A stretch of 32,000 nucleotides of DNA from Verrucomicrobiota bacterium. GTDB lineage: Bacteria; Verrucomicrobiota; Verrucomicrobiia; Chthoniobacterales; UBA6821. The position numbers and the translations under genes are program-made. Within the stretch, counting starts at the first letter, position 1. Every line of letters begins with the position of its first letter. Of the stretch, positions 767-32,000 are shown in pieces. The stretch lies in NCBI GenBank assembly GCA_008932965.1, contig WBXG01000008.1, forward strand, positions 5,023-37,022, written 5' to 3'. The notes beneath the pieces were generated by a model. That model was not told the DNA's origin. It saw only the letters and a list, made by a program, of their open reading frames with translations, and searched no databases.

Positions 767-2152
767 ATGTCTTCTTCCTCTCCCATAAAACGTAAAGTCG
801 GCTTGGTTAGTCTAGGATGTGCCAAAAATCTCGTTGATGCTGAGATTCTTCTTGGAGATGCTGCTCGTCATGGGTACGAGCTAACTCAAAAAAATGAAGA
901 GGCCGATGTCGTGCTCGTTAATACCTGTGGCTTTATCGATCTTGCCAAGGAAGAGAGCATTAATGCCATTTTAGAAGCCCACCGACAACGGCTTCATGGA
1001 AGCAAAACAGAGCAGAAAATTGTGGTCGGGGGATGTCTTTCACAGCGTTATTCAGCAGACCTAGCAAAGCAGCTTCCTGAAGTGGATGCTTTTTTGGGGC
1101 TTGATGAGATCTCGCGCGCTGGAGAAATATTTAATCGGCTTTTTGAGGAGGATGTTTCTCAAGAAGATAGGGTCACTGTTTCCCGTCGTGCTGCCTACAT
1201 TCCTGATTTTGATACTCCCCGTGTGCGTCTCACCGCAGCTCATACGACCTATGTCAAGATTGCTGAAGGGTGTAATCATCCCTGTTCCTTCTGTGTCATC
1301 CCACGTATGCGGGGACGACATCGTAGTCGTACCATAGAGTCTGTAGTAAAAGAGGTCCAGGGACTCGTTGTCTCTGGGGTCAAAGAAATTAATTTAGTCA
1401 GCCAAGATACAACCTATTTTGGAATGGATCAGTGGGAAGAGAAAGCAGGCCCACGTCAAGAAGTCGATGCTGCCCGTGGTCCTAGTTTGATTGGTTTACT
1501 CGATGCATTGGGCAAGATCGAGGGAGATTTTTGGATACGACTTCTTTACACACATCCTGCTCACTGGAGTGATGATTTAATTGCTGCTATTGCCCGTAAT
1601 CCCAAAGTGACACGTTATATTGATATTCCCCTCCAGCATATCCATGAAGAGATGCTGGCCGCTATGAAACGTGAAACAGGTCGTCAACATATCGTGGATC
1701 TCATAGCTCGCCTTCGTTCAGGTATTCCAGAGCTTGTTATTAGGACAACCTTTATTGTCGGATTTCCGGGAGAAACCGAAGAGCATTTTGAGAGCCTGCT
1801 TGATTTTATACGTGAGACTCGTTTTGAAAGGTTAGGGGTTTTCTCTTACTCACGTGAAGAGGAATCACGTGCCGCTAAAATGCCACATCAAATTCATGGC
1901 AACACCAAGCAGCGTCGTCTTCGAGAGGCAATGCTCTTGCAGCAGCAGATTGCACGTGAGTGGGCTGAGTCACAAGTGGGAAAAAAGGTAAAGGTTCTTG
2001 CTGACACTGCTTACTTAGGCAGGACTCAAGGAGATGCCCCGGATGTAGACTGCCGGGTTCATTTTGTGAAGCCTGTGGCACCTGGTAGTTTTGTGAATTG
2101 CGTCATTACAGGAACACGTGATTACGATTTAGTAGGAGATGAGATTCGCTAG
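767..2152 (+). CDS. rimO: Ribosomal protein S12 methylthiotransferase RimO (radical SAM, MTTase family with C-terminal TRAM)
   Basis: N-terminal VGLVSLGCAKNLVDAE is the RimO-type UPF0004 motif. The radical-SAM CX3CX2C motif is present (CNHPCSFC), and there is a C-terminal TRAM-like region. I prefer the ATG at 767 (MSSSSPIKRK...) over the TTG at 710 in the ORF track. Confidence 0.85.
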   Translation: MSSSSPIKRKVGLVSLGCAKNLVDAEILLGDAARHGYELTQKNEEADVVLVNTCGFIDLAKEESINAILEAHRQRLHGSKTEQKIVVGGCLSQRYSADLAKQLPEVDAFLGLDEISRAGEIFNRLFEEDVSQEDRVTVSRRAAYIPDFDTPRVRLTAAHTTYVKIAEGCNHPCSFCVIPRMRGRHRSRTIESVVKEVQGLVVSGVKEINLVSQDTTYFGMDQWEEKAGPRQEVDAARGPSLIGLLDALGKIEGDFWIRLLYTHPAHWSDDLIAAIARNPKVTRYIDIPLQHIHEEMLAAMKRETGRQHIVDLIARLRSGIPELVIRTTFIVGFPGETEEHFESLLDFIRETRFERLGVFSYSREEESRAAKMPHQIHGNTKQRRLREAMLLQQQIAREWAESQVGKKVKVLADTAYLGRTQGDAPDVDCRVHFVKPVAPGSFVNCVITGTRDYDLVGDEIR

Positions 2153-2329
2153 CCCGAATATTTTATTCCGATCACCTGCGTAAGTCGGGAAGCCAGATGA
2201 ATGCTGCGTTAGACTCACATTTTAACTTGGACATTAGGAATGCATACAGCCCAGGCTCAAAATGCTCACTCACCTTACCCTATCAGCCTTCACGGCCTCC
2301 TCGTCACGATTCAGTATAAAATATCTGGG
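2152..2329 (+). mobile_element. MITE-like repeat, copy 1 (178 bp, subtype A, degenerate TIRs), flanked by TA at 2150-2151 and 2330-2331
   Basis: The left end is gcccgaatattttattcc and the right end is cagtataaaatatctggg, which are inverted repeats. The internal sequence aligns at roughly 84% over the left 82 nt with copy 5 (31165-31424). Confidence 0.8.
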
Positions 2330-2410
2330 TATAGTGTATTAAATTGAAAAGAGCTAGTTTATCACGTACCCCTTTCCATTAAATACACTCTATCACCCTT
2401 TAGCTTTTAA

Positions 2411-4315: not shown

Positions 4316-6781
4316 ATGTCATCATCATCATCGCGTCGCACTTGGAATGAAGTAATAGGACTGATCCTTATGGGGGGAGGGGTTTTATTATTGCTTGCCC
4401 TTCTCTCCTATGATCCTCGTGATCTCCCCTCATGGCTGTTTTATGCAAAATACTCCTCAACATCACCCGTTCCGCTCAATTTTGTAGGGCGTTTCGGTGC
4501 TGTGATGGCTGGACTCAGTTTCTTTCTTTTTGGAGGAGCCTCCTTTTTTGCAGCAGTAGCATTGGTTGGAATGGGACTCTCCTGTTTTTTTGGGGAGGAA
4601 TCCCCCCTTGGTATTCGTCTTGGATGGTCTCTAGTTTTTGTTTTAAGTTGGGCCTACTTTCTCGATTTCCTCGACCATTTTAAGTTTTTTTCGTCTACAT
4701 GGAAACAGACCTTAGCGATCCCTGGAGCTGGTGGATGGTTTGGCCACGCACTAGGAATTGCAATCGGTAAAAATACCATGGGACTTGTCGGTACTATTTT
4801 TGTTTTTTTAATCGCAGCATTAACAAGTTTGATTTTAGCCACGGGCTTTCATCCTATTAAAACTACCAAACAGGTTTTGGTAATAATGACAAAAGCACTT
4901 TTTCAATTAGTCCATCATTTTAAAAACCAATTTTTAGTAAAAAAATCCTCTCCCTTAAACACAAGGGAATCTGTTTCAAATTCTACTAAAAAGACTGTGT
5001 CACGTCCTAATAAAAGACCACTCAAGGAGTTCGCCCTTGAAGAATCTCTAGAGGAAGCAAGCAATCCTCCCCCTTCTTCCAATCTCCCTCTTCCAAAAAT
5101 TATTGATGCTAGTGTGCCAGCAAAAAAGCCGACCCTTGCTGAGGTGATGAAGGCCCGGCCTAAGCCCTCTTCTGCGATGGACTCAGAAACAGGATCGTTA
5201 TCTCATGTTGCCTTAGAAAACTACACTCTTCCTTCTTTTGATTTACTCGAAACTCATGAAAGCAACGATCGTCAACCTGCCGACCCGGCAGTTTTACAGT
5301 CGGTGCAGCGTGTTTTAATTGATACTCTTGCACAATTTGGTATTGAGGCAGCGCCTGGAGATATTACCAAAGGACCCACGATTACTCGTTATGAACTTTA
5401 CCCAGCAAGCGGTGTTCGCGTGGATCGTATTTCCAATTTGGAACGTGACTTGGCACGTGCCACGAGTGCAGAACGCATTAATATTTTAGCTCCTATTCCT
5501 GGCAAAGATACCGTAGGTATTGAAATCGCCAATACTACAAAAGTAACGGTGGCTATTCGTGAGCTTTTTGAAAGTAATGCTTGGCAAAGTTCGAAAGCAA
5601 AACTTCCATTAGCACTTGGTAAAGATGTCTATGGCAATGCAATTATTGCGGATCTAGCCCAGATGCCACATCTTCTCGTAGCTGGAGCAACGGGAAGTGG
5701 CAAGAGCGTTTGTATCAACTCGATTATCACCAGTCTTATTTTTAAGCATACACCAGAGACGCTTCGTTTTATCATGATCGATCCGAAGGTTGTGGAGATG
5801 CAGATCTACAACAAACTGCCACACTTGGTGACACCTGTAGTAACCGACCCCAAAAAAGTCTTACTTGCACTCCGCTGGGTCATTGATGAGATGGAATTAC
5901 GTTATAAGATTTTTGCAAAAACGGGGGTTCGCAATATTAGCGGTTTTAATGCTCGTCCTCAGCCAAATAAGGAAAAAAAACCGGAGCCTGTTGAGTCTAT
6001 CCTTGAAGAGGTAAATATCGATCCCTTGCTGGGAGGTGATTTCACTGCTGCCTCCTTGCTCGAAGAGGAGCCACCTACTGCAAAAGCAGTTCCGTATCAA
6101 TCTTCACGTGAAGAGGAAATTATTATCCCAGACTTTATGCCCTTTATCGTAGTTATTGTCGATGAGTTGGCAGATCTCATGCAAACGGCTCCTGCAGATG
6201 TGGAGTCGGCTATAGCTCGTATTACTCAGATGGCACGTGCTGCAGGCATCCATATGATTGTGGCCACGCAAACTCCAAGAGCTGATGTGGTGACTGGAAT
6301 CATCAAGGCTAATATACCCACTCGTATCGCTTTTCAAGTAGCCTCCAAACTCGATAGCCGAGTCATTCTCGACCAAAATGGAGCGGATCGTTTGTTAGGA
6401 CAGGGGGATATGCTCTATTTACCACCAGGAAGTGCTAAGGTCTTGCGTGCTCAAGGAGTGCTTGTTACCGATGAGGAGATTGGAAGGGTGGTCGATTTTC
6501 TTGGAGCGCAGAGCTCGCCAATCTTTGAACCCTCTATTGCGGCCAAACTCTCTAATGCAACAATGCCTGAGGAAGATATCACAGAGGAGGAAGAGGAGCT
6601 CGTGACAAAATGCCTGGAGATTATTCGTCAAGAAAAGAAAGCCTCTACATCGATGCTTCAACGTCGCCTTCGCCTCGGCTACACGCGTGCAGCACGCGTG
6701 GTCGATATTTTGGAGCAACGTGGTATTTTAGGACCCAAGGATGGAGCTCGCGATCGTGAAATTTTAATAGATTTGGGGTAG
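4316..6781 (+). CDS. ftsK: DNA translocase FtsK
   Basis: It has N-terminal transmembrane helices and a Pro/Ser-rich linker. Walker A is GATGSGKS and Walker B is VVIVDELADL. The C-terminal gamma winged-helix reads STSMLQRRLRLGYTRAARVVDILE. Confidence 0.95.
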   Translation: MSSSSSRRTWNEVIGLILMGGGVLLLLALLSYDPRDLPSWLFYAKYSSTSPVPLNFVGRFGAVMAGLSFFLFGGASFFAAVALVGMGLSCFFGEESPLGIRLGWSLVFVLSWAYFLDFLDHFKFFSSTWKQTLAIPGAGGWFGHALGIAIGKNTMGLVGTIFVFLIAALTSLILATGFHPIKTTKQVLVIMTKALFQLVHHFKNQFLVKKSSPLNTRESVSNSTKKTVSRPNKRPLKEFALEESLEEASNPPPSSNLPLPKIIDASVPAKKPTLAEVMKARPKPSSAMDSETGSLSHVALENYTLPSFDLLETHESNDRQPADPAVLQSVQRVLIDTLAQFGIEAAPGDITKGPTITRYELYPASGVRVDRISNLERDLARATSAERINILAPIPGKDTVGIEIANTTKVTVAIRELFESNAWQSSKAKLPLALGKDVYGNAIIADLAQMPHLLVAGATGSGKSVCINSIITSLIFKHTPETLRFIMIDPKVVEMQIYNKLPHLVTPVVTDPKKVLLALRWVIDEMELRYKIFAKTGVRNISGFNARPQPNKEKKPEPVESILEEVNIDPLLGGDFTAASLLEEEPPTAKAVPYQSSREEEIIIPDFMPFIVVIVDELADLMQTAPADVESAIARITQMARAAGIHMIVATQTPRADVVTGIIKANIPTRIAFQVASKLDSRVILDQNGADRLLGQGDMLYLPPGSAKVLRAQGVLVTDEEIGRVVDFLGAQSSPIFEPSIAAKLSNATMPEEDITEEEEELVTKCLEIIRQEKKASTSMLQRRLRLGYTRAARVVDILEQRGILGPKDGARDREILIDLG

Positions 6782-6793
6782 AGGTAGTTTCAT

Positions 6794-7504
6794 TTAGCTC
6801 TTTTTTGATGCCGTATAAATAGTGACAATCCCAAAGGTCATTGGGGCAGCAGTGGTATGAAAGAAATCACATTTTTTGAGTAAAGAGAGCATTTCTTTTC
6901 CTGAGGGAAATGCTTCAATGGAGCCTCCCATATATTCATAAGCATTACTATTTCCAGTAACCCACCCAGCAAGGTGTGGCAAGAGGTGGTGCAAGTAGAA
7001 ACGGTATAAAGGACGCAAGAGAGAGGAGGTAGGAAGTGAAAAATCGAGGATTAAAAGATGACCGCTAGGTCGTAAAATCCGGTGCATTTCTCGCAATCCA
7101 TCCTCCCAGGAAGCCATGTTGCGAAGACCAAAAGAAATGGTAACGACATCAAAAGATTTTTCTTCGTAGGGGAGGGAGAGGCCATCAGCTTCTAGGAAGG
7201 TGATTGATTTTGCAGTGATCTTTTTTTTGGCTTGTTGAATTTGTGTTAACCGAGCTTGTTCGAGCATCGGAGCACAGAAATCGACACCAATAATTTCTGC
7301 ATTAGGTAATTTTTTTCTTAGAGCAAAAGCTAAATCACCATTGCCGGTGGCAACATCAAGAATGTTTTTGGGATTCCATTGTTGCACTTGTTGAGCAACA
7401 CAATGGCGCCACCAAAAATCAAGACCAGCAGATAAAAAATGGTTTGCCATTGCGTAGCGCCTTGCAATTGAGCAAAAGAGACTTTTAACATATTCGGGAT
7501 TCAT
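6794..7504 (-). CDS. ubiE: Demethylmenaquinone / ubiquinone-menaquinone biosynthesis C-methyltransferase (UbiE/MenG family)
   Basis: It has the class I SAM-binding motif DVATGNGDLA and the UbiE-family motif ISFGLRN. The length of 236 aa fits the family. Confidence 0.85.
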   Translation of the reverse strand: MNPEYVKSLFCSIARRYAMANHFLSAGLDFWWRHCVAQQVQQWNPKNILDVATGNGDLAFALRKKLPNAEIIGVDFCAPMLEQARLTQIQQAKKKITAKSITFLEADGLSLPYEEKSFDVVTISFGLRNMASWEDGLREMHRILRPSGHLLILDFSLPTSSLLRPLYRFYLHHLLPHLAGWVTGNSNAYEYMGGSIEAFPSGKEMLSLLKKCDFFHTTAAPMTFGIVTIYTASKKS

Positions 7505-9168: not shown

Positions 9169-10047
9169 TTGAATGCATCTATGATAGAAAAAGAATTACC
9201 TGCTTTGAGGCAATTTCATGCCTCAGTAGGTATTCTTGGACTTGGTATTATCGGAAAGCGGGTTGCAGAGATACTACAGAATGATAAGACCTTCTCTGTC
9301 TTTGTTTGGAACCGTTCTCCACGGTCACTTCCAAATTTCCTGGCCTCTCCTCAAGCAGTTGCAGAATCAGCAGCGATTCTTCAACTTTTTGTGAGAGATG
9401 GAGTCGCCCTACTCGAGGTTCTCGAGCAGCTCTCTCCTGCATTAAATTCGTCTCACCTTGTCTTAAACCATGCAACTGTAAGTCCACAAGAGACCCTTCA
9501 AGCCGCAGCCCTGGTCAATAAAAGAGGTGCTCAATTTTTAGATGCTCCTTTCACTGGAAGCAGGGATGCTGCTGCTGCTGGAAAATTGGTTTATTACTTG
9601 GGTGGCTCATCTGAAGCAATCGAAAAGGTCACGCCACTTCTAAAGCTTTCTTCAAAAGAGATTCTCCCTATGGGGGCCATTGGTTCTGCAACTACAGTGA
9701 AAATTGCAACTAACATGATCACCGCTGCTCAAGTCAACGCTCTCACAGAGGCCTTAACACTGCTTCAACTCACAAAAATCCCTTTGCAATCTTTACATCA
9801 AGCGTTGATTCACAATGCTGCCTATTCGCCAGTCATTGCAATGAAATTACCACTGATGTTACAAGGTAATTTTGAACCTCATTTTTCTACTAAAAATATG
9901 TTTAAGGACCTCTCTCTTGCTCTTGATCTTGCTAAAGAGCATAGCGTTGCACTTCCTTTAACAGCCACTACAGCGGCAGCCCTGGAGAATTTGATCTCTC
10001 AAGGTTTAGGGGATCAAGACTTTTCTGCATTAGCCCATTCTCTCTAA
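9169..10047 (+). CDS. NAD(P)-dependent beta-hydroxyacid dehydrogenase family oxidoreductase (3-hydroxyisobutyrate / 6-phosphogluconate dehydrogenase NAD-binding type)
   Basis: It has an N-terminal Rossmann motif GILGLGIIGKRVA, the motif LDAPFTGS, and the family's helical C-terminal domain. The start is ambiguous between the TTG at 9169 and the ATG at 9181. Confidence 0.7.
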   Translation: MNASMIEKELPALRQFHASVGILGLGIIGKRVAEILQNDKTFSVFVWNRSPRSLPNFLASPQAVAESAAILQLFVRDGVALLEVLEQLSPALNSSHLVLNHATVSPQETLQAAALVNKRGAQFLDAPFTGSRDAAAAGKLVYYLGGSSEAIEKVTPLLKLSSKEILPMGAIGSATTVKIATNMITAAQVNALTEALTLLQLTKIPLQSLHQALIHNAAYSPVIAMKLPLMLQGNFEPHFSTKNMFKDLSLALDLAKEHSVALPLTATTAAALENLISQGLGDQDFSALAHSL

Positions 10048-11183
10048 TGCTCTCAAACAGGAAGGATCCTCTTATTCCTGCTCTTGGTACTATGAGTGCG
10101 TTAGAAAATAAAGCTCTCTTAAAAAAAGCTCGGAGTGAGGGTGGCGCTTTTGCCACCGCTCCCTCTTCGTATCTCCGTGTGAGTGGAGCAGATCGTCTGC
10201 GATATTTAAATGGTCAAATCACAGCCGACCTTCGCAAGCTTTCTTTAGGGCATTCCTTGTCAGCGTGTCTACTGACTCCCAAAGGTCGTCTTGTAGCACT
10301 CCTCAGCATTACAATCGAGGGAGAGGCATTCTTAATTGAGACAGATCCTTTGATGGAAAAGGTCGTTTTAGAGCGTCTTGAACGCTATCTTGTTGCCGAC
10401 GATGTCGTCATTGAAGTGATCACTCCTCCTGATACTATCCATTTTTTTGGACCTCTTGCGCATCATCCTGAGATTGAGAATGCCCCTGGCACTCTGATTT
10501 CACGCATCGGTTTTCCCGGAAAGGATCTCACTCAGATCTTTCATACTGATTCTAATGCGTCTTGCAAAAGCCTCATAGATACAACCGGCTCGAACTTTTG
10601 TTCAAGTGGTATGAAACATATAGCCGTTGTTGAGGATCCTCCCCTTCCTAATCTGCATCAGCCTTTGCAGTCTCCTCAACACGATGAGTATGAAATATCC
10701 GACCTGGAGACCGCACGATTTTCCTCTTTGCCTTCAATTGGTCCGACAATATTACTTTCTCCCAATCTCGTAGAAATTCTGCGTATTGAGCAAAAAATTC
10801 CACGTTGGGGTTTTGAACTCACAAGTGAGACCTTACCTCCAGAAGCACGACTCGAAGAAAAATGTATCGACTATGAAAAAGGATGTTACCTTGGCCAAGA
10901 GGTTATTTCACGCCTCAAGAGTCTAGGCCATGTCAATCGCCTGCTCTATGGCTTTACTTCCAAAGAGAAAATCCTCCCTGGTATGGATATTTATATAAAA
11001 GAAGACCCATCACAAAGTGTTGGAATCATTACTAGTGCAGCATTGCAAATCGATTCTGGCTCCTTTATTGCTCTTGGCTATTTGCGACGCGGAAGTGAAA
11101 ATCGATCTCATTATATTGCTCAAGATCCTAAGTCAGTCCATCAAAGTAATATCATCATTAATAACACTCTCTCCTCTCAATAA
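10047..11183 (+). CDS. ygfZ: Folate-binding YgfZ / GcvT-family protein (Fe-S cluster repair / tRNA-modification associated)
   Basis: The hallmark KGCYxGQE motif is present (YEKGCYLGQEV), and the N-terminal region LRVSGADRLRYLNGQITAD is typical. The ATG overlaps the upstream TAA by 1 nt (TAATG). An alternative start lies at 10092. Confidence 0.8.
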   Translation: MLSNRKDPLIPALGTMSALENKALLKKARSEGGAFATAPSSYLRVSGADRLRYLNGQITADLRKLSLGHSLSACLLTPKGRLVALLSITIEGEAFLIETDPLMEKVVLERLERYLVADDVVIEVITPPDTIHFFGPLAHHPEIENAPGTLISRIGFPGKDLTQIFHTDSNASCKSLIDTTGSNFCSSGMKHIAVVEDPPLPNLHQPLQSPQHDEYEISDLETARFSSLPSIGPTILLSPNLVEILRIEQKIPRWGFELTSETLPPEARLEEKCIDYEKGCYLGQEVISRLKSLGHVNRLLYGFTSKEKILPGMDIYIKEDPSQSVGIITSAALQIDSGSFIALGYLRRGSENRSHYIAQDPKSVHQSNIIINNTLSSQ

Positions 11184-11812: not shown

Positions 11813-12148
11813 ATGAGCACGACAATTGGATCAACATCACGACCAACAGGAGGACTGGCCAGTACATCTAATAAACCGGCGGAAGCTCCCTCAAGCTCCA
11901 AAGGATTAAAAACAAATCCTCCTGCAGGAATTTTTGCTAACCGTGTTATTTCTCAGACAAAAAATCTAGGGCCTAAAGTGCCTGCTAAAAATAATAAATT
12001 TCCAGCTTCTGATATAAGGCGTTATGCTCCAGCACCTCCTTTAACAGAAGAGCAAGTGAGAGTAAGGGATTTTGTTCCTTTTAAAGACCTCCTAGAAGCA
12101 ACTTTTTTAGATAATCCAGAAGGAACTATTGCAACTGTTTTAGATTAA
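11813..12148 (+). CDS. Hypothetical small protein, Ser/Pro/Ala-rich and probably disordered
   Basis: This 111-aa ORF fills the gap after the cyclophilin gene on the same strand. I recognise no domain and see no clear RBS. Confidence 0.4.
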   Translation: MSTTIGSTSRPTGGLASTSNKPAEAPSSSKGLKTNPPAGIFANRVISQTKNLGPKVPAKNNKFPASDIRRYAPAPPLTEEQVRVRDFVPFKDLLEATFLDNPEGTIATVLD

Positions 12149-12171
12149 CTTGAGTAACCCATATCTTTGTA

Positions 12172-12301
12172 GCCTCGATATTTCATACTGATCGTGATGA
12201 AGAGGCCGCGAAGGCTGATGAGGCAAGTCAAAATAGGAGTCCAACGCAGTATCTATCTGACTTCTCGGCTAACGGAGTAGATTGGTATGAAATATGCGGG
12301 C
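12172..12301 (-). mobile_element. MITE-like repeat, copy 2 (130 bp, short form lacking the central palindrome), flanked by TA at 12170-12171 and 12302-12303
   Basis: The ends are gcctcgatatttcatactg and ggtatgaaatatgcgggc. The arms match the reverse complement of copies 1 and 5. For example, tatcagccttcgcggcctcttcatcacgatcagtatgaaatatcg here corresponds to tatcagccttcacggcctcctcgtcacgattcagtataaaatatctg in copy 1. Confidence 0.8.
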
Positions 12302-12825
12302 TAGGAGGAGAAAATAGAGAGCCCTTTTTCTTGATAGTGAAGCAGTTCTTGATAGAGCTGTTCTAGCCCGTTTGGAATAATACGAACTCCTGCAAGAAGA
12401 GGCATAAAATTTTGATCGTTTTCCCAGCGCGGAACGATATGAAGATGGAGATGGTCATCAGTACCTGCCCCACCAGCAGCCCCAAGGTTCAAACCAAGAT
12501 TAAAGCCATGGGCATGCACCACTGCTTTGAGAAGTCGTTGTGCATGTATGGCAAGGTTCCATAAATCGAGTGCCTCTTCCTCTGAGAGGTCACTCATTTC
12601 TGCTGTTTTTCGATAAGGAACAGCCATGAGATGTCCAGTTGTGTAGGGATACTTATTAAGGATCAGGAAAGCATTTTTACGACGAGTAACTACTAAGTGA
12701 GCTGCATCATCTGAGCTGTGAGCTGCTTCAAGTAAGAAATCATGATTCGATTGATGATCACGTTGGAAGTACTCTACCCTCCATGGTGCCCAGAGGGTTT
12801 CAAGGTTTTTTTTAGGAAATTCCAT
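12301..12825 (-). CDS. HIT-family nucleotide hydrolase/transferase
   Basis: The histidine triad HLHLHIVPR is present, and the N-terminal WAPWRVEY is typical of bacterial HIT/Ap4A-type proteins. Confidence 0.85.
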   Translation of the reverse strand: MEFPKKNLETLWAPWRVEYFQRDHQSNHDFLLEAAHSSDDAAHLVVTRRKNAFLILNKYPYTTGHLMAVPYRKTAEMSDLSEEEALDLWNLAIHAQRLLKAVVHAHGFNLGLNLGAAGGAGTDDHLHLHIVPRWENDQNFMPLLAGVRIIPNGLEQLYQELLHYQEKGLSIFSS

Positions 12826-19292: not shown

Positions 19293-20394
19293 TTAAGAGC
19301 GCAATTTTGCCTCTATAAAAAGATCAATTTCTCCATCCATAACCCCCATAACATCGCTTGTTTGAGTCTCGGTACGATGATCTTTAACCATTTGGTAAGG
19401 CTGAAAAACATAGGAACGAATTTGACTTCCCCAAGCAATTTCACCCTTTTCCCCGTATTGACGATCCAGCTCTGCCCGTTTTTTATCAGCTTCAAGATGA
19501 TAAATTTTAGCCTTGAGCATCTTAAGAGCTAGGACTCGGTTCTTCAATTGGCTCCGTTCTGCCTGACAGGCTACAACGACCCCTGTAGGAACGTGTGTCA
19601 TGCGCACTGCTGTTTCGACCTTATTCACGTTTTGTCCTCCCTTGCCTCCGGAGCGATAGGTATCAACACGGATATCTTTTTCATCGATTTCAATGGGGGC
19701 ATCCTCGATATCTGGAACCACATCAACGCTTGCAAAGGAAGTATGGCGTCGTTTATTAGAATCAAAAGGTGAAATACGTACCAACCGATGAACACCACAC
19801 TCTGTTTGTAAGTACCCAAAAGCATACTTCCCTTTTACAAGCAAGGTGATCGATTTAATGCCGGCCTCATCTCCCTCTTGAACATCGATGATGCTCGAGG
19901 TAAAACCGCGCCGTTCCATCCAGCGTTGATACATGCGAAGTAACATTTCTGCCCAGTCACAGGATTCAGTTCCACCAGCTCCTGCATGAATCGTAAGAAA
20001 GCCATCCGCACGATCAAATTCCCCAGAGAGTAACTGCAAGAGTTCAAACTGCTCAATCTCTTTGGTGAGTTTTTGAAACTCCTCCTCCACTTCACCGGCG
20101 GCAAGGATCTGCTGCTCGGGAGATGTTTCCTCTTCTGCCATCGATTTAAGAAGCTCCAAATCCCTGGATCGCTCTTCAAGAGCGGAGAGGGGAGTGAGCT
20201 TGGAGCGAAGCTCTGAGATGCGCTCCACATCTTTCTGAGACTTTTCGCGATGGTCCCAAAAATCTGGGAGTGTCATGCGGGATTCAATTTCTTGAAGCTC
20301 TTGAATTAAACGAGGAGCGTCAAAGAAACCTCCGCAAACTACTGAGACGTTCAGTGAGGGCGGAGGGGTCTAGTGTAGTGAGATCAACAGACAT
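19293..20394 (-). CDS. prfB: Peptide chain release factor 2, requires programmed +1 ribosomal frameshift (join 20394..20323, 20321..19293)
   Basis: ORF0 runs ATG(20394)...AGG TTT CTT TGA (24 sense codons). The +1 frame continues [23 protein letters not shown]... It contains the SPF motif (RISPFDS) and the GGQ motif ([10 protein letters not shown]). The joined product is about 366 aa. Confidence 0.93.
20319..20333 (-). promoter_or_regulatory. prfB +1 frameshift cassette: SD-like GGAGG, slippery CTT, in-frame TGA followed by C
   Basis: The minus strand reads GGAGG TTT CTT TGA C. This matches the canonical RF2 autoregulatory site CUU UGA C with an upstream internal Shine-Dalgarno. Confidence 0.9.
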
Positions 20395-23216: not shown

Positions 23217-23298
23217 AGCTTATTAAAAGAGTTATAGCAAGGTGTAGTGTCAAGAACGAGAACATAGCTGGCAAAAGCAAGGCCGCTGGGTAGACTTA

Positions 23299-23478
23299 AC
23301 CCGGATATTTCACACTAAATCTATTACGGCTTGTGGAAAGCTCATCATTACTGCGTTGGTCTCGAATTGTGATTTGGGCAGTATGAGACATACAGCCCGG
23401 TATCCCAATCCTTCGCCCGCCTTGTACTAATAAGCTTTGCACGGCGCCTCATGACGATTCAGTATGAAATATCCGGGC
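23299..23478 (+). mobile_element. MITE-like repeat, copy 3 (180 bp, subtype B), flanked by TA at 23297-23298 and 23479-23480
   Basis: The ends are acccggatatttcacac and cagtatgaaatatccgggc. The central hairpin is gggcagtatg-aga-catacagccc. It is the reverse complement of copy 4 over its full length. Confidence 0.85.
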
Positions 23479-23480
23479 TA

Positions 23481-23530
23481 GTCCTAATAAGCTTTGCATG
23501 GCACCTCACGACACTTCAGTTTGAATTTTT
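23481..23530 (+). repeat. Partial tandem duplicate of the right arm of copy 3 (degenerate terminal repeat)
   Basis: The segment gtcctaataagctttgcatggcacctcacgacacttcagtttgaattttt aligns with 23424-23473, gtactaataagctttgcacggcgcctcatgacgattcagtatgaaatatc. Confidence 0.7.
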
Positions 23531-24405
23531 TAGCTTAGATGATCAAATCCCTTGCTAAGTTCTGTCGAATATTGATCGGCAGAAGTGATGCTCCCAATGG
23601 GGGTGAGAGGTAATGTTGGGAAGTTTCTTTTCCAATCTGCATCGATTTTGGGCCAAGTTTCAGGTGCAATAGTGACTAACAATTCATAATCTTCTCCATC
23701 ACTCATGGCCTCTTCGATAGTAACACCGTCATGGCAAGGGATTGTATTTTTTTCAAGAGTGAAGCTACAGCGACTTGCTTTTGTAAGACGTGGCAGGTCA
23801 CTGCCAAGTCCATCACTTAAATCCATCATGGCATGAACACCCCGCTGCCCTGCTAACCACTGACCTTCGGCGAGGCGAGGAAAAAAGTTAAGGTGGTGTC
23901 CACTTTGCAGTGAACCTCCAAGTCGACCGGTCACACAGATGAGATCCTCTTTTCGCGCCATGCTGCGAAGAGAAGAGCGCTTGCCGGTAGAACCAGTGAT
24001 TGTAACAGAAATAAACAATCCTCCAGGAGAGCGAGTTATTTCTCCCCCAACAACAACAATTCCAAAAGTACGCGCTGCTTTTCCAAATCCATGAGCAAGT
24101 TGCAACCATTTTTCTTGTTGAAAAACAGCAGGTGCTGCAACGGTGATTAAAGCATGCTTTGGAATAGCACCCATGGCAGCAAAGTCACTAATGCAGCGGC
24201 AGAGGGCCTTCCAGCCAACCTGAGTTAGATCAGCCCCAGCATTAAAATGGATTCCCTCAACTGTGGCATCGGTTTTGAGGACTAGTGATTGGTTTCCTTT
24301 AGGTGGTTTGACAATGGCACAATCATCACCACTTCCCACGATTACTGAAGGGTCATGAATTGGTAGCTCGTAACGCAGAAGCTCAAGAAGAGAATCTTCA
24401 TTCAT
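23530..24405 (-). CDS. thiL: Thiamine-monophosphate kinase
   Basis: It has an AIR-synthase-related fold signature, with the N-terminal GSGDDCAIV and the DLSDGLGSDL motif. The ATG overlaps the upstream gene's stop (ATGA). Confidence 0.85.
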   Translation of the reverse strand: MNEDSLLELLRYELPIHDPSVIVGSGDDCAIVKPPKGNQSLVLKTDATVEGIHFNAGADLTQVGWKALCRCISDFAAMGAIPKHALITVAAPAVFQQEKWLQLAHGFGKAARTFGIVVVGGEITRSPGGLFISVTITGSTGKRSSLRSMARKEDLICVTGRLGGSLQSGHHLNFFPRLAEGQWLAGQRGVHAMMDLSDGLGSDLPRLTKASRCSFTLEKNTIPCHDGVTIEEAMSDGEDYELLVTIAPETWPKIDADWKRNFPTLPLTPIGSITSADQYSTELSKGFDHLS

Positions 24406-25211: not shown

Positions 25212-25229
25212 AAGTGACTAAAAAATTTA

Positions 25230-25409
25230 ATTCGGATATTTCATACTGAAGTGTCATAAGGTGCTGTGCAAAGCTTATTAGTAGAAGGTGGGTGAAGGAT
25301 AGTGATTCCGGGCTCTATGAGTCCCTACTTTTCCTATCACCATTTAAGGACGAAATAGCAATAATAAGGTTTCCACGAGCTGTAATGAATTTAGTATGAA
25401 ATATGGGGT
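25230..25409 (-). mobile_element. MITE-like repeat, copy 4 (180 bp, subtype B, inverted relative to copy 3), flanked by TA at 25228-25229 and 25410-25411
   Basis: The ends are attcggatatttcatactg and tagtatgaaatatggggt. The left end lies 18 bp upstream of the CPBP start codon. Confidence 0.85.
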
Positions 25410-25558
25410 TAAGTATGTTCACAAAAACTTCAGCGTCAAATTCAATATAGAGTCATTGTCTTGTGAATAACTTGGGAATAAATGGGAATGAATCCCAAGA
25501 GAGCTTCTCTCTTTTCTAAGCTGGATTATTAACGTTGGTTGTTTTAGAGATAGAGTTT

Positions 25559-26950
25559 ATGTCAAAAGTTGAATTACGTGCAAATCTGGAGAAGCTTGGG
25601 GTTCACCCGAGTAAAATGTTAGGTCAAAACTTTCTCTTAGATTCTAATTTAGCACGAGCTATCGTTGCTGACAGTAATCCTCAGAAAGGGGACCATTGCG
25701 TTGAGATTGGGCCTGGAATGGGAGCTCTTACCGAGCATCTTTACAACTCTGCGGCATCTCGTATTACCCTTATTGAGCGAGACCATCGTTTTGTAGCAGC
25801 ACTGAAACAACGCTATGAAAGTTCCCGTGTTCGTGTGATCGGTGGCGATGCTGCCAAAATTGATTTAAGAGAATTGTATGGATATGGACCTATCAAAGTC
25901 ATTGGTAATCTCCCTTATAGTGCCTCCACAGCAATTATTGCTCGTTTTACAGAAGCTCTTTCACCCGCTTCCAGCCTTGTTCTCATGCTGCAACGAGAGG
26001 TTGCTCAAAGATTGGCAGCTACTCCCGGAGATGACGATTATGGGGCCCTTACTGTTTTGTTGGGACGACGTTGGTGTGTGAAGAAAAAGCGTATCGTCCC
26101 TCCTGATGTTTTTTGGCCTCGGCCAAGTGTTGAGTCAGCTGTGGTCAAAATAACACGACGTCCTATTCAAGAAATCCCTCCCTGCAATGAGGCGTTTTTT
26201 CACGATATGGTTCGGCTTGGGTTTTCCTCGCGACGCAAGCAACTTGGTTCATTGCTAAAAACATCTTCCTCTCGATGGCTCCAAATAGTAACTGACTTAG
26301 GGTATCCCCCGACGATTCGTGCTGAAAATCTCAACATCAAGGAGTGGTCTTTTTTAGTGAATCAACTCTCCCTTGTGAGTCCGGAATCCAAGGAAGAGTT
26401 ATTCGATGTTGTTGATGAAAATGATATTGTTGTTAGCTCGCAAGAGCGACATTTTGTTCATGTGAATAAGTTGTTGCATCGTGCTGTTCACATATGGATT
26501 TTTAACAATCGTGGAGAACTCTTTCTTCAAAAGCGTTCTTATTGGAAAGAAAATCATCCAGGTCTCTGGTGTTCGAGTGTTGCTGGGCATGTCTCCGCTG
26601 GTGAAAACTACTTGGAGGCAGCAAAAAGAGAATTATTCGAAGAGTTAGGAGTAAATGTTCCGCTCCAACTCATCCACAGGATTCTGGCAAGTGAAGTGAC
26701 CGGACAAGAATTTGTTGAATGCTTTGTTGGCATTGCAGAAGAACCCTTTTTTTTGGATCCAGAGGAAATTGAAACAGGTGCTTTTTTTCATCCAAGATTG
26801 ATTCAAGAATGGATTGATATTCATCCTGAAGAATTCACTCCACTCTTCAAAGTAATTGCAAAGAAATTCTTAAATGAGCCAGAATGTCTCTTTAAGTCAG
26901 AAAGTTTGGGACATAACATCCCATTTAAAGATCTTAAAAAATCAAATTAA
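25559..26950 (+). CDS. rsmA: Fusion protein: 16S rRNA (adenine1518/1519-N6)-dimethyltransferase RsmA/KsgA (N-terminal ~275 aa) + Idi-like Nudix hydrolase domain (C-terminal ~180 aa)
   Basis: RsmA motifs are LGQNFLLD, EIGPGMGALT and GNLPYSAS. The Nudix box is GHVSAGENYLEAAKRELFEELGV, preceded by LHRAVHIWIFNNRGELFLQKRS. It is a single uninterrupted frame. I prefer the ATG at 25559 over the TTG at 25535. Confidence 0.85.
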   Translation: MSKVELRANLEKLGVHPSKMLGQNFLLDSNLARAIVADSNPQKGDHCVEIGPGMGALTEHLYNSAASRITLIERDHRFVAALKQRYESSRVRVIGGDAAKIDLRELYGYGPIKVIGNLPYSASTAIIARFTEALSPASSLVLMLQREVAQRLAATPGDDDYGALTVLLGRRWCVKKKRIVPPDVFWPRPSVESAVVKITRRPIQEIPPCNEAFFHDMVRLGFSSRRKQLGSLLKTSSSRWLQIVTDLGYPPTIRAENLNIKEWSFLVNQLSLVSPESKEELFDVVDENDIVVSSQERHFVHVNKLLHRAVHIWIFNNRGELFLQKRSYWKENHPGLWCSSVAGHVSAGENYLEAAKRELFEELGVNVPLQLIHRILASEVTGQEFVECFVGIAEEPFFLDPEEIETGAFFHPRLIQEWIDIHPEEFTPLFKVIAKKFLNEPECLFKSESLGHNIPFKDLKKSN

Positions 26951-31136: not shown

Positions 31137-31164
31137 TTAATAGATATTGCTATAGAGAGGGTTA

Positions 31165-31424
31165 ACCCGGATATTTCATACCAATCACCTGCGGAAGCCG
31201 GGAAGTCAGATGGATGCTGCGTAAGACTCCTATTTTGACTTGGACAGTATGTACTCATACAGTCCTGAGTCAAAATACTTGTCTGGGTTGACTCGCTCGC
31301 TCCCGCTCATCTCGCCCTTTCAGGGCTTCCCAAGGGGCAGCTCCCCCTGAGGTTTCCTGACCGCCGGTGGTGCCCCATTAGCCTTTGCGTCTTACTTGTT
31401 ACGATCAGTATGAAATATCCGAGG
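31165..31424 (+). mobile_element. MITE-like repeat, copy 5 (260 bp, subtype A with a GC-rich extra segment of about 80 bp), flanked by TA at 31163-31164 and 31425-31426
   Basis: The ends are acccggatatttcatacc and cagtatgaaatatccgagg. A long imperfect foldback lies at 31233-31275. The extra segment lies within 31277-31376. Confidence 0.85.
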
Positions 31425-31503
31425 TAATACGATCTTCTGCATTGCTTTTAAAAAAAATCTCTGGGCTCTTTCCTCTATCTTCTAAATAATTTGAATGTAA
31501 ACT

Positions 31504-31902
31504 ATGCACCAAGAAAATAGTATGAACTCCATAAAAAAAACCTCTCTCGACTCATATCCCTTTCCGATCGGGCCTTATTCTATTGCAAGAAAGTTGGGTA
31601 ATACCCTCTATCTTTCCGGTCAAATTGGAATCGATCCCGAAACAATGCAGCTTGCGAATGGAATCGAAAAACAAATGCACCGAGCTTTTCAAAATATGCA
31701 GGCTGTTCTTGCTGATGTTGGTGCAACTTTTAAGAATGTTGTCAAAATAACCATTTTTATTACCGACATGAACACTTTTCCATTAGTGAATCAAGTCATG
31801 TCAGAATATTTTTCAGAACCTTATCCAGCGCGTAGTACGCTTGGGGTAAAAGAACTTCCAAAGGGTGCTGTAGTCGAGATTGAAGGGATTGCCGAGTTGT
31901 AG
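31504..31902 (+). CDS. ridA: RidA/YjgF/UK114-family reactive-intermediate deaminase
   Basis: LYLSGQIGIDPET, ARSTLGVKELPKGAVVEIEGIA and the size of about 130 aa are typical. An alternative start lies at 31522. Confidence 0.88.
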   Translation: MHQENSMNSIKKTSLDSYPFPIGPYSIARKLGNTLYLSGQIGIDPETMQLANGIEKQMHRAFQNMQAVLADVGATFKNVVKITIFITDMNTFPLVNQVMSEYFSEPYPARSTLGVKELPKGAVVEIEGIAEL

Positions 31903-32000
31903 TCTCGAATGGTGATTGGGGCTCTATGAGTCCCTGCCGCCCAAGTTAAAATGGGAGTCTAACGTAGCATCCATCTGGCTTTCCGGTCTTCGCAGTAGAT
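31903..32000 (-). mobile_element. MITE-like repeat, copy 6 (subtype A, inverted). It starts at the palindromic core directly after the ridA stop and is cut by the window edge.
   Basis: The reverse complement atctactgcgaagaccggaaagccagatggatgctacgttagactcccattttaacttggg... aligns with the left arm of copies 1 and 5. The arm and TIR expected on the ridA side are absent. Confidence 0.7.

Follow-up and report, generated by a model that had tools for sequence, protein, structure and literature searches.

The stretch of DNA analysed here, referred to as the window, comprises 32 kb of contig WBXG01000008.1 from a Verrucomicrobiota bacterium (assembly GCA_008932965.1). It has a GC content of about 43% and carries rimO, ftsK, a gene for a UbiE-type methyltransferase, a tRNA-Leu gene, a gene for a SurA-like peptidyl-prolyl isomerase (PPIase), ygfZ, and genes for a cyclophilin and a HIT-family protein, followed by lpxB, lpxI, leuS, rdgB, prfB, thiL, rsmA, dnaK, groES/EL and ridA, all of which are housekeeping genes. 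The YgfZ protein is identical to one in a metagenome-assembled genome (MAG) named "Verrucomicrobiae bacterium", and its relatives belong to the Chthoniobacterales. Inserted between these genes, and in one case within one of them, are seven copies and one fragment of a single repeat family, making up about 4% of the window; searching the window by nhmmer with a profile of the copy alignment yielded nothing else convincing. From the ends of the copies, their flanks and full-length relatives found in metagenomes, we conclude with considerable confidence that this family is an IS1380-type miniature inverted-repeat transposable element (MITE) with a 4-bp YTAR target-site duplication.

The seven copies were detected by nhmmer with E values from 5e-51 to 1e-20 and the fragment (hit 23477-23526) with E = 1.6e-6. 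The loci were also recovered as direct repeat families D1-D6 and inverted repeat families I1-I8, and a full-length alignment of all was obtained. The terminus CCCGGATATTTCATAC matched the window 12 times with up to three mismatches, compared to 0.20 matches expected, and none of 100 shuffled sequences reached 12. A preliminary description of the window, made from the sequence alone, had listed six intergenic loci as homologous copies, and repeat families, alignment and profile search agree on all six; the seventh copy, at 10531-10703 inside the open reading frame (ORF) 10047-11183, had been overlooked. The ten TA dinucleotides named there as flanks are all correctly placed. Nevertheless, the element ends had been set off by 1-4 nt, as CCCG and CGGG delimit the element itself and the TA belongs to a 4-nt flank.

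Copy 1 (2149-2333, plus strand) consists of an element of 177 nt (2153-2329) with CTAG on the left (2149-2152) and a degenerate TATA on the right (2330-2333). The genic copy (10527-10707, plus strand; nhmmer E = 8e-42) contains an element of 173 nt between the decayed flanks CTCA (10527-10530) and CTGG (10704-10707). Copy 2 (12169-12304, minus strand) is internally deleted to 128 nt (12173-12300) and flanked by GTAG (12169-12172) and CTAG (12301-12304). For copy 3 (23296-23481, plus strand), an element of 178 nt (23300-23477) was found between TTAA (23296-23299) and CTAG (23478-23481). It adjoins the fragment (23482-23526, plus strand; D2, I7 and nhmmer), the right arm of another copy with most of its terminal inverted repeat (TIR) gone, which ends 4 nt short of the stop codon of thiL (23530-24405, minus strand). 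Copy 4 (25227-25412, minus strand), likewise of 178 nt (25231-25408) and bordered by TTAA on both sides (25227-25230 and 25409-25412), is located between the divergent CPBP protease gene and the rsmA-nudix gene. Copy 5 (31162-31427, plus strand), which follows the groEL terminator, is a long form of 258 nt (31166-31423) flanked by TTAA (31162-31165) and GTAA (31424-31427). Copy 6 (31903-32000, minus strand; E = 1.4e-20) is internally truncated on the RidA side, cut by the window end, and starts immediately past the RidA stop codon (31900-31902).

Across the family the core TIRs are 16 nt long, 5'-CCCGGATATTTCATAC...GTATGAAATATCCGGG-3', with a usual pairing of 14-19 bp, and enclose a small central hairpin as well as two arms, which have diverged and can be exchanged. 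Elements measure 124-295 nt, most often 176 nt (37 of 104 copies), and the terminal stem is paired in about 97% of cells across 74 copies. Several arm types exist and left and right arms are combined freely, so that the two subtypes A and B distinguished initially are too simple a scheme; the palindromic cores are as had been described. The strong foldback reported for copy 5 was confirmed (-103.7 kcal/mol, z = -5.7), and the extra length of this copy is accounted for by a nested module of about 84 nt. Copies occur in both orientations, within coding sequence and nested in one another. No copy contains a transposase gene, and the ORFs found are either host genes read through copies or short ORFs in two stop-free frames. 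The first designation as a MITE, that is, a short, non-coding, multi-copy element with TIRs and a target-site duplication, therefore stands.

The module in copy 5 (31285-31368) represents a GC-rich repeat of about 84 nt, TTGACTCGCTCGCTCCCGCTC...CCGCCGGTGGT, which is nested in long-form copies and was found at 24 places in the loci L007-L096. It occupies two different internal positions in both orientations and is rare outside MITE copies.

Target-site duplication and transposase family

Alignment of the ends of 104 full copies clearly demonstrated a direct repeat of four bases, of the form YTAR, on either side of CCCG...CGGG. Matching pairs were found in 56 copies in all (TTAA/TTAA 25, CTAG/CTAG 21, CTAA/CTAA 9 and TTAG/TTAG 1), and mirror pairs, CTAA...TTAG or TTAG...CTAA, did not occur among the 104. 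In 68 of 81 copies the left and the right TA are preceded by the same base (Fisher p = 8e-11), and in 63 of 81 they are followed by the same base (Fisher p = 1e-8). Counted over all element ends, TTAA was observed 110 times, CTAG 80 times, and TTAG and CTAA together 57 times; TA as such is present at 89 of 104 left and 94 of 104 right ends.

Further evidence was obtained from a copy nested inside another copy (L066, 2528-2706), which reads ...GAGT CTAA, element, CTAA CGCAGC... The intact paralogues, window copy 1 included, represent the corresponding empty site, ...GAGT CTAA CGCAGC..., with a single CTAA. In addition, about ten places were found at which two abutting elements have one YTAR in common. 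The target-site duplication is thus the 4-bp YTAR, and TA is merely its centre. The TA-only duplication of 2 bp originally proposed is contradicted by the direct YTAR repeats, by the nested insertion and by the absence of mirror pairs, which would be expected if only TA was duplicated and the element ends varied. The empty site confirms that a duplication occurs upon insertion, but one of four bases and not the single TA that had been predicted.

Insertion sequences of the IS1380 family have ends beginning with CC and generate a duplication of 4 bp. A metagenome scan for YTAR followed by CCCGGATATTTCATAC yielded many contigs with two such ends facing each other at a distance of 1.58-2.09 kb, as in L171, L176, L131, L168, L179, L180, L122 and L099, which have the same 16-nt termini. 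The ORFs of L171, L176, L131 and L168 (471-504 aa) scored 344-428 bits on NF033539, the IS1380 family transposase (cut-off 180), and matched PF13701 with E = 1e-133 to 1e-163, and those of L099, L122, L179 and L180 were matched to IS1380 transposases by tblastn; using tblastn, thirteen metagenome loci with an IS1380-type transposase were found. TIRs of the full-length elements comprise 16-24 bp with the 16-nt core shared with the MITE, identical at 16 of 16 positions in L131, L168, L171 and L176, and the elements are flanked by CTAG/CTAG (L168, L176, L179), CTAA/CTAA (L180) or otherwise near matches. As IS1380 elements possess the same 16-nt ends together with YTAR flanks, the ends and the target behaviour of the MITE are those of an IS1380 subgroup. 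A full-length insertion sequence with the termini of the window copies, expected by the preliminary description above all in the IS630 family, does therefore exist in metagenome contigs, but it belongs to IS1380.

According to this assignment, an IS1380-type DDE transposase supplied in trans would bind the TIRs, and the element would be inserted at a YTAR tetranucleotide by a 4-nt staggered cut, resulting in duplication of YTAR. Such mobilisation in trans and the kind of transposase acting in this lineage are inferred, and the window copies may or may not still be mobile.

Another MITE family of about 176-184 nt with CCCGGATATTTCATAC ends and YTAR flanks was also found (L102, L104, L113, L114, L123, L126, L130, L165, L177, L182, L187, L189 and L200). 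Its contigs are metagenomic, derive from other organisms and have a GC content of 0.40-0.55. Sharing both ends and flanks, this second family indicates that the IS1380 terminus is widely used by MITEs.

Several observations weigh against the IS1380 assignment. A transposase of any kind was found neither in the window, where in agreement with the first description all ORFs belong to housekeeping families or have no Pfam match, nor in about 680 kb of repeat-bearing MAG loci, although this is weak evidence given that the MAGs are fragmented and the loci are 8-kb stretches. The IS1380 contigs with matching ends have a higher GC content (0.49-0.69) and probably belong to other organisms than the MITE hosts. 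Moreover, full-length elements and MITE are alike only over the terminal 16-19 nt or so, and derivation from a particular parent element is accordingly unsupported. Most window copies look old. Finally, the family cannot be told from the duplication alone, since the target-site duplication motif of IS5 is also 5'-YTAR-3' (PMC5009759); IS711 duplicates the TA of YTAR (PMC2266754).

Candidates for an autonomous partner within the repeat-bearing loci were examined and rejected. Orphan TIRs were solo ends, mini-derivatives of 58-110 nt or truncated copies, a split copy in L060 was a chance pairing around housekeeping genes, and L067 and L053 were without transposase. Viral contigs gave no match to the terminus.

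Spread, age and origin of the copies

To determine the distribution of the family, one genome per species was scanned for the 17-mer terminus. Among the matches listed, to which the following distribution refers, the terminus was concentrated in the Chthoniobacterales/Spartobacteria MAGs Kiruna_bin-02438, Tobar2m-G38 and Deming_bin.170, and one SMAG_U8253 contig carried it as well. Further copies are present in at least four related uncultured Chthoniobacterales genomes. The fetched loci contained at least 190 non-overlapping nhmmer hits, 114 of them full length, and related MAGs account for at least about 170-185 further copies in about 70 loci, as expected from the high genome-wide abundance predicted from the window. 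The repeat was absent from unrelated taxa with a single 17-mer match when their fetched loci were searched by nhmmer. In the searchable literature, no MITE family described for Verrucomicrobiota and no IS1380-derived MITE was found; the present family may thus be the first documented one on both counts, though the kind of element is well known.

The explanation that competes most seriously with a mobile IS1380-type MITE concerns not its origin but its present state. The element might have transposed in an ancestor only, leaving immobile relics in the window genome which were spread by descent and recombination alone. We regard this as a real possibility, though we lean slightly against it. Window copies are only 73-85% identical to their nearest relatives, with the exception of copy 3, and the flanks TATA, GTAG, GTAA and CTCA/CTGG in the window have decayed. 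The lack of any transposase found would fit as well, and a relative whose YgfZ shares 61% of its amino acids with that of the window has a remnant at the same site. In addition, the copies recur at identical positions in six metagenome contigs (L001-L006) with about 99% identity to the window, and no polymorphic copies were seen among these strains. As all copies are shared, the close strains give no empty-site information. On the other hand, copy 3 is 96% identical to copies of Tobar2m-G38, another species whose genes are about 88% identical to those of the window. Nearest-neighbour identity reaches a median of 94% in the Kiruna and 91% in the Tobar MAG, with a maximum of 98%, and insertions are nested. 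The high identity of copy 3 and of the Kiruna and Tobar copies together with the nesting argues for fairly recent activity in the clade. In this particular genome, old copies, decayed flanks and missing strain differences leave present mobility unproven.

As to the family of origin, derivation from an element of the IS5 family (IS5 group) was considered because of YTAR and dropped on finding IS1380 elements with identical ends. The 4-bp duplication of IS5 is the same as found here. However, IS5 ends begin with GG and those of the MITE with CC, no IS5-like transposase was found beside these TIRs, tblastn with an approximate InsH sequence gave nothing, and all full-length elements recovered with these ends code for IS1380-family transposases. 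An IS5 origin therefore appears very improbable.

Even less credit can be given to the assignment made in the preliminary description, a MITE mobilised by an IS630/Tc1-mariner transposase with TA-only duplication like the Correia elements of Neisseria. It was founded on the TA that borders each of the five complete intergenic window copies on either side, an observation that is correct and extends to most ends family-wide (89 and 94 of 104), and elements of the IS630 type prefer NTAN targets. The flanks nevertheless show no mirror arrangement, with zero mirror pairs against 56 direct 4-mer matches, including nine CTAA/CTAA (p = 8e-11), and the full-length elements with these termini encode transposases of the IS1380 and not the IS630 family.

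Scarcely any weight remains for the view that the repeats are primarily structured RNA or regulatory hairpins (REP/ERIC-like terminators or mRNA stabilisers) kept by selection: individual copies fold strongly (z = -5.7 for copy 5, -40 to -86 kcal/mol for others), one strand is consistently the better folder and many copies lie just past stop codons, but Rfam gave no match at the gathering threshold or even at E <= 1, conservation across 74 copies is confined to the TIR stem and a central hairpin of 3-5 bp (consensus energy -13 kcal/mol) with essentially no compensatory change and no covariation beyond the TIR stem (alifold and pair counts), arms combine freely, copies are found in either orientation, within genes and nested, and promoter-like and terminator-like sites are not enriched. 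Orthologous intergenic regions also differ in repeat content, so that a syntenic structured RNA, named earlier as the alternative to a mobile repeat, is unsupported. At the 3' end of the HIT gene, for instance, copy 2 sits at the stop codon in the window, two different copies lie about 115 nt away in the Kiruna MAG, and the Tobar MAG is free of copies there.

Apart from the repeats, comparison with the close contigs revealed two differences. In L001-L004 (about 99% identical), ftsK and the UbiE-type methyltransferase gene are separated by a 2.07-kb segment that encodes an S8 peptidase (L001 4684-6750) and is missing from the window (6776-6796); its junctions show neither MITE nor duplication. 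The hypothetical ORF upstream of copy 2 (window 11813-12148) is 132 nt (44 codons) shorter than its counterpart at L001 11767-12234 due to an in-frame deletion between the short direct repeats CTAGAAGCAA / CTATAGAAGCAA, unrelated to the MITE. Two further observations concern window genes. The profile match of prfB (19293-20276, minus strand) begins only at position 33, and upstream, at about 20300-20315, GGAGGTTTCTTTGAC is present, which is the classical programmed +1 frameshift site of release factor 2, CUU UGA C after a Shine-Dalgarno-like GGAGG. The region 25535-26950 forms a single ORF of 471 aa, in which RsmA/KsgA (residues 24-277) is joined to a Nudix / IPP-isomerase-like domain (285-441).

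Insertion at stop codons and within genes

Two of the window copies are located precisely on stop codons. The TAG of the left 4-mer of copy 1 (2150-2152) is the stop codon of rimO (710-2152), and the flank of copy 2 at 12301-12303 provides, on the minus strand, the TAG stop of the HIT-family gene (12301-12825). Family-wide, an ORF of at least 100 codons terminates with the TAR of the flank at 38 of 254 element ends (about 15%), compared to 13 and 11 in the other frames. Since YTAR holds TAA or TAG and is duplicated, insertion on a stop codon restores the stop on the gene side and is harmless, and this regeneration of the stop explains why many copies begin exactly at the stop codon of a gene.

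Copies inside genes can be read through as well, because 176 nt of element and 4 nt of duplication add up to 180 nt, or 60 codons, and usually one frame per strand is free of stops. The stop-free frames are (+,2) in 38 of 74 copies and (-,2) in 29 of 74. Long ORFs continue through at least 11 copies, and all 11 listed use the same frame relative to the TIR, giving rise to a peptide of about 60 residues, L-(T/A)-R-I-F-H-T-D ... (Y/C)-E-I-(S/C)-G-L. Genic copies make up only about 6% of those sampled.

The genic copy of the window lies in frame in the YgfZ/GcvT-like ORF 10047-11183, where 173 + 4 = 177 nt (59 codons) are translated as residues ~161-220 (LTQIFHTD...HDEYEISDL). Alignment with YgfZ orthologues of 290-310 aa showed that these are without the ~60 residues at exactly the insert point, and the NCBIfam matches of the window protein are split into 44-123 and 243-348. 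In an AlphaFold (AF2) model the predicted confidence (pLDDT) was below 50 at residues 165-223 and 77-94 over residues 21-160 and 301-370; the underlying alignment is shallow, and values below 50 were also obtained outside the insert, for residues 255-295. The insert is therefore modelled as a low-confidence loop. The two closest YgfZ relatives, including that in L097, carry a 69-nt left-arm remnant of a different arm type at the same site, and the insert in the window and the L097 remnant may represent either one old insertion or two independent hits. Some insertions appear to have been kept for long, as the site in YgfZ is filled in lineages that share only 61% protein sequence identity.

Downstream of ygfZ and the PPIase gene, L097 and the window also have one small hypothetical gene in common, which is followed by a copy in both (2271-2456 and 12173-12300, respectively). 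The next gene past that copy is PAD_porph in L097 and HIT in the window. Either shared ancestry or repeated targeting may account for this placement of the two copies.

Other hosts were found in related loci. GlnD in L027 shows profile matches on both sides of the insert, and in the low-molecular-weight phosphotyrosine phosphatase of L026 the Pfam domain is split, whereas the L019 orthologue from another MAG is without insert. Further genic hosts include an AddB-like protein, a permease and RnpA. In rnpA of Kiruna_bin-02438 (L060 25-624, minus strand) more than one MITE-derived in-frame segment precedes the conserved KRVGNAIVRNRVKR motif.

A profile of the insert peptide run against 5.8 billion proteins recovered only 45 short hypothetical ORFs and none of the long genic cases, and is no measure of how widespread genic insertions are. 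In public gene calls, intergenic copies are annotated as hypothetical proteins of 57-111 aa in MAGs of Verrucomicrobia/Chthoniobacterales (P0121-P0165), an artefact of annotation that arises from the two stop-free frames.

It is tempting to compare this behaviour with that of the Rickettsia palindromic elements (RPEs), whose frequent in-frame insertion into genes extends proteins by a conserved peptide and does not destroy them (review PMC10969869). That the MITE constitutes a second, independent system of this kind, in which the 180-nt unit and the stop-free frames were shaped by selection for survival in coding sequence and on stop codons, is a tentative and rather unlikely proposal. If it holds, such a system would regularly supply the housekeeping proteins of this clade of Verrucomicrobiota with insertions of ~60 residues.

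Comparison with known systems

Replacing IS630 by IS1380 and TA by YTAR changes both the transposase to look for and the prediction of insertion sites, and the duplicated YTAR provides a simple mechanistic reason for the piling up of copies at gene ends. The colonisation of genes in frame, best known from Rickettsia, occurs in another phylum too. In practical terms, the repeats break MAG assemblies, lengthen conserved proteins (YgfZ, GlnD and RnpA, for example) and should be masked by annotation pipelines.

The closest match is to the IS1380 insertion sequences (e.g., ISEcp1 and ISPme1), as the MITE has the same 16-nt termini and YTAR flanks as the metagenomic NF033539/PF13701 elements. It differs from these in being without a transposase and ten times shorter, and no partner was found in the same genomes. 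TTAA, which is duplicated by piggyBac, is also the commonest target of the MITE. IS1380 transposases form the prokaryotic outgroup in piggyBac phylogenies (PMC10813416), and with IS1380 as bacterial relative of piggyBac the element would, if the proposal of a second RPE-like system holds, offer a bacterial model of TTAA/YTAR-targeting, frame-preserving transposition. IS5 elements (IS5 group) share the YTAR motif and the duplication length (PMC5009759), but no IS5-type transposase was found beside the MITE termini.

The Correia elements (CREE) of Neisseria and other IS630-type MITEs resemble the family in size (100-260 nt), in TIRs of about 16-26 nt, in their hundreds of copies, in the TA at both ends and in having subtypes with interchangeable ends. 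Their duplication is TA only, in contrast to the 4-bp YTAR found here, where the matching transposase family is IS1380. The RPEs, like the MITE, are short palindromic repeats often found in frame inside unrelated housekeeping genes; they occur in Alphaproteobacteria and the MITE in Verrucomicrobiota, and the latter has clear TIRs, a YTAR duplication and an identifiable insertion sequence family. The likeness is one of behaviour, and the MITE is accordingly not filed as an RPE but as an IS1380-type element that shares with the RPEs the capacity to reside in frame within genes.

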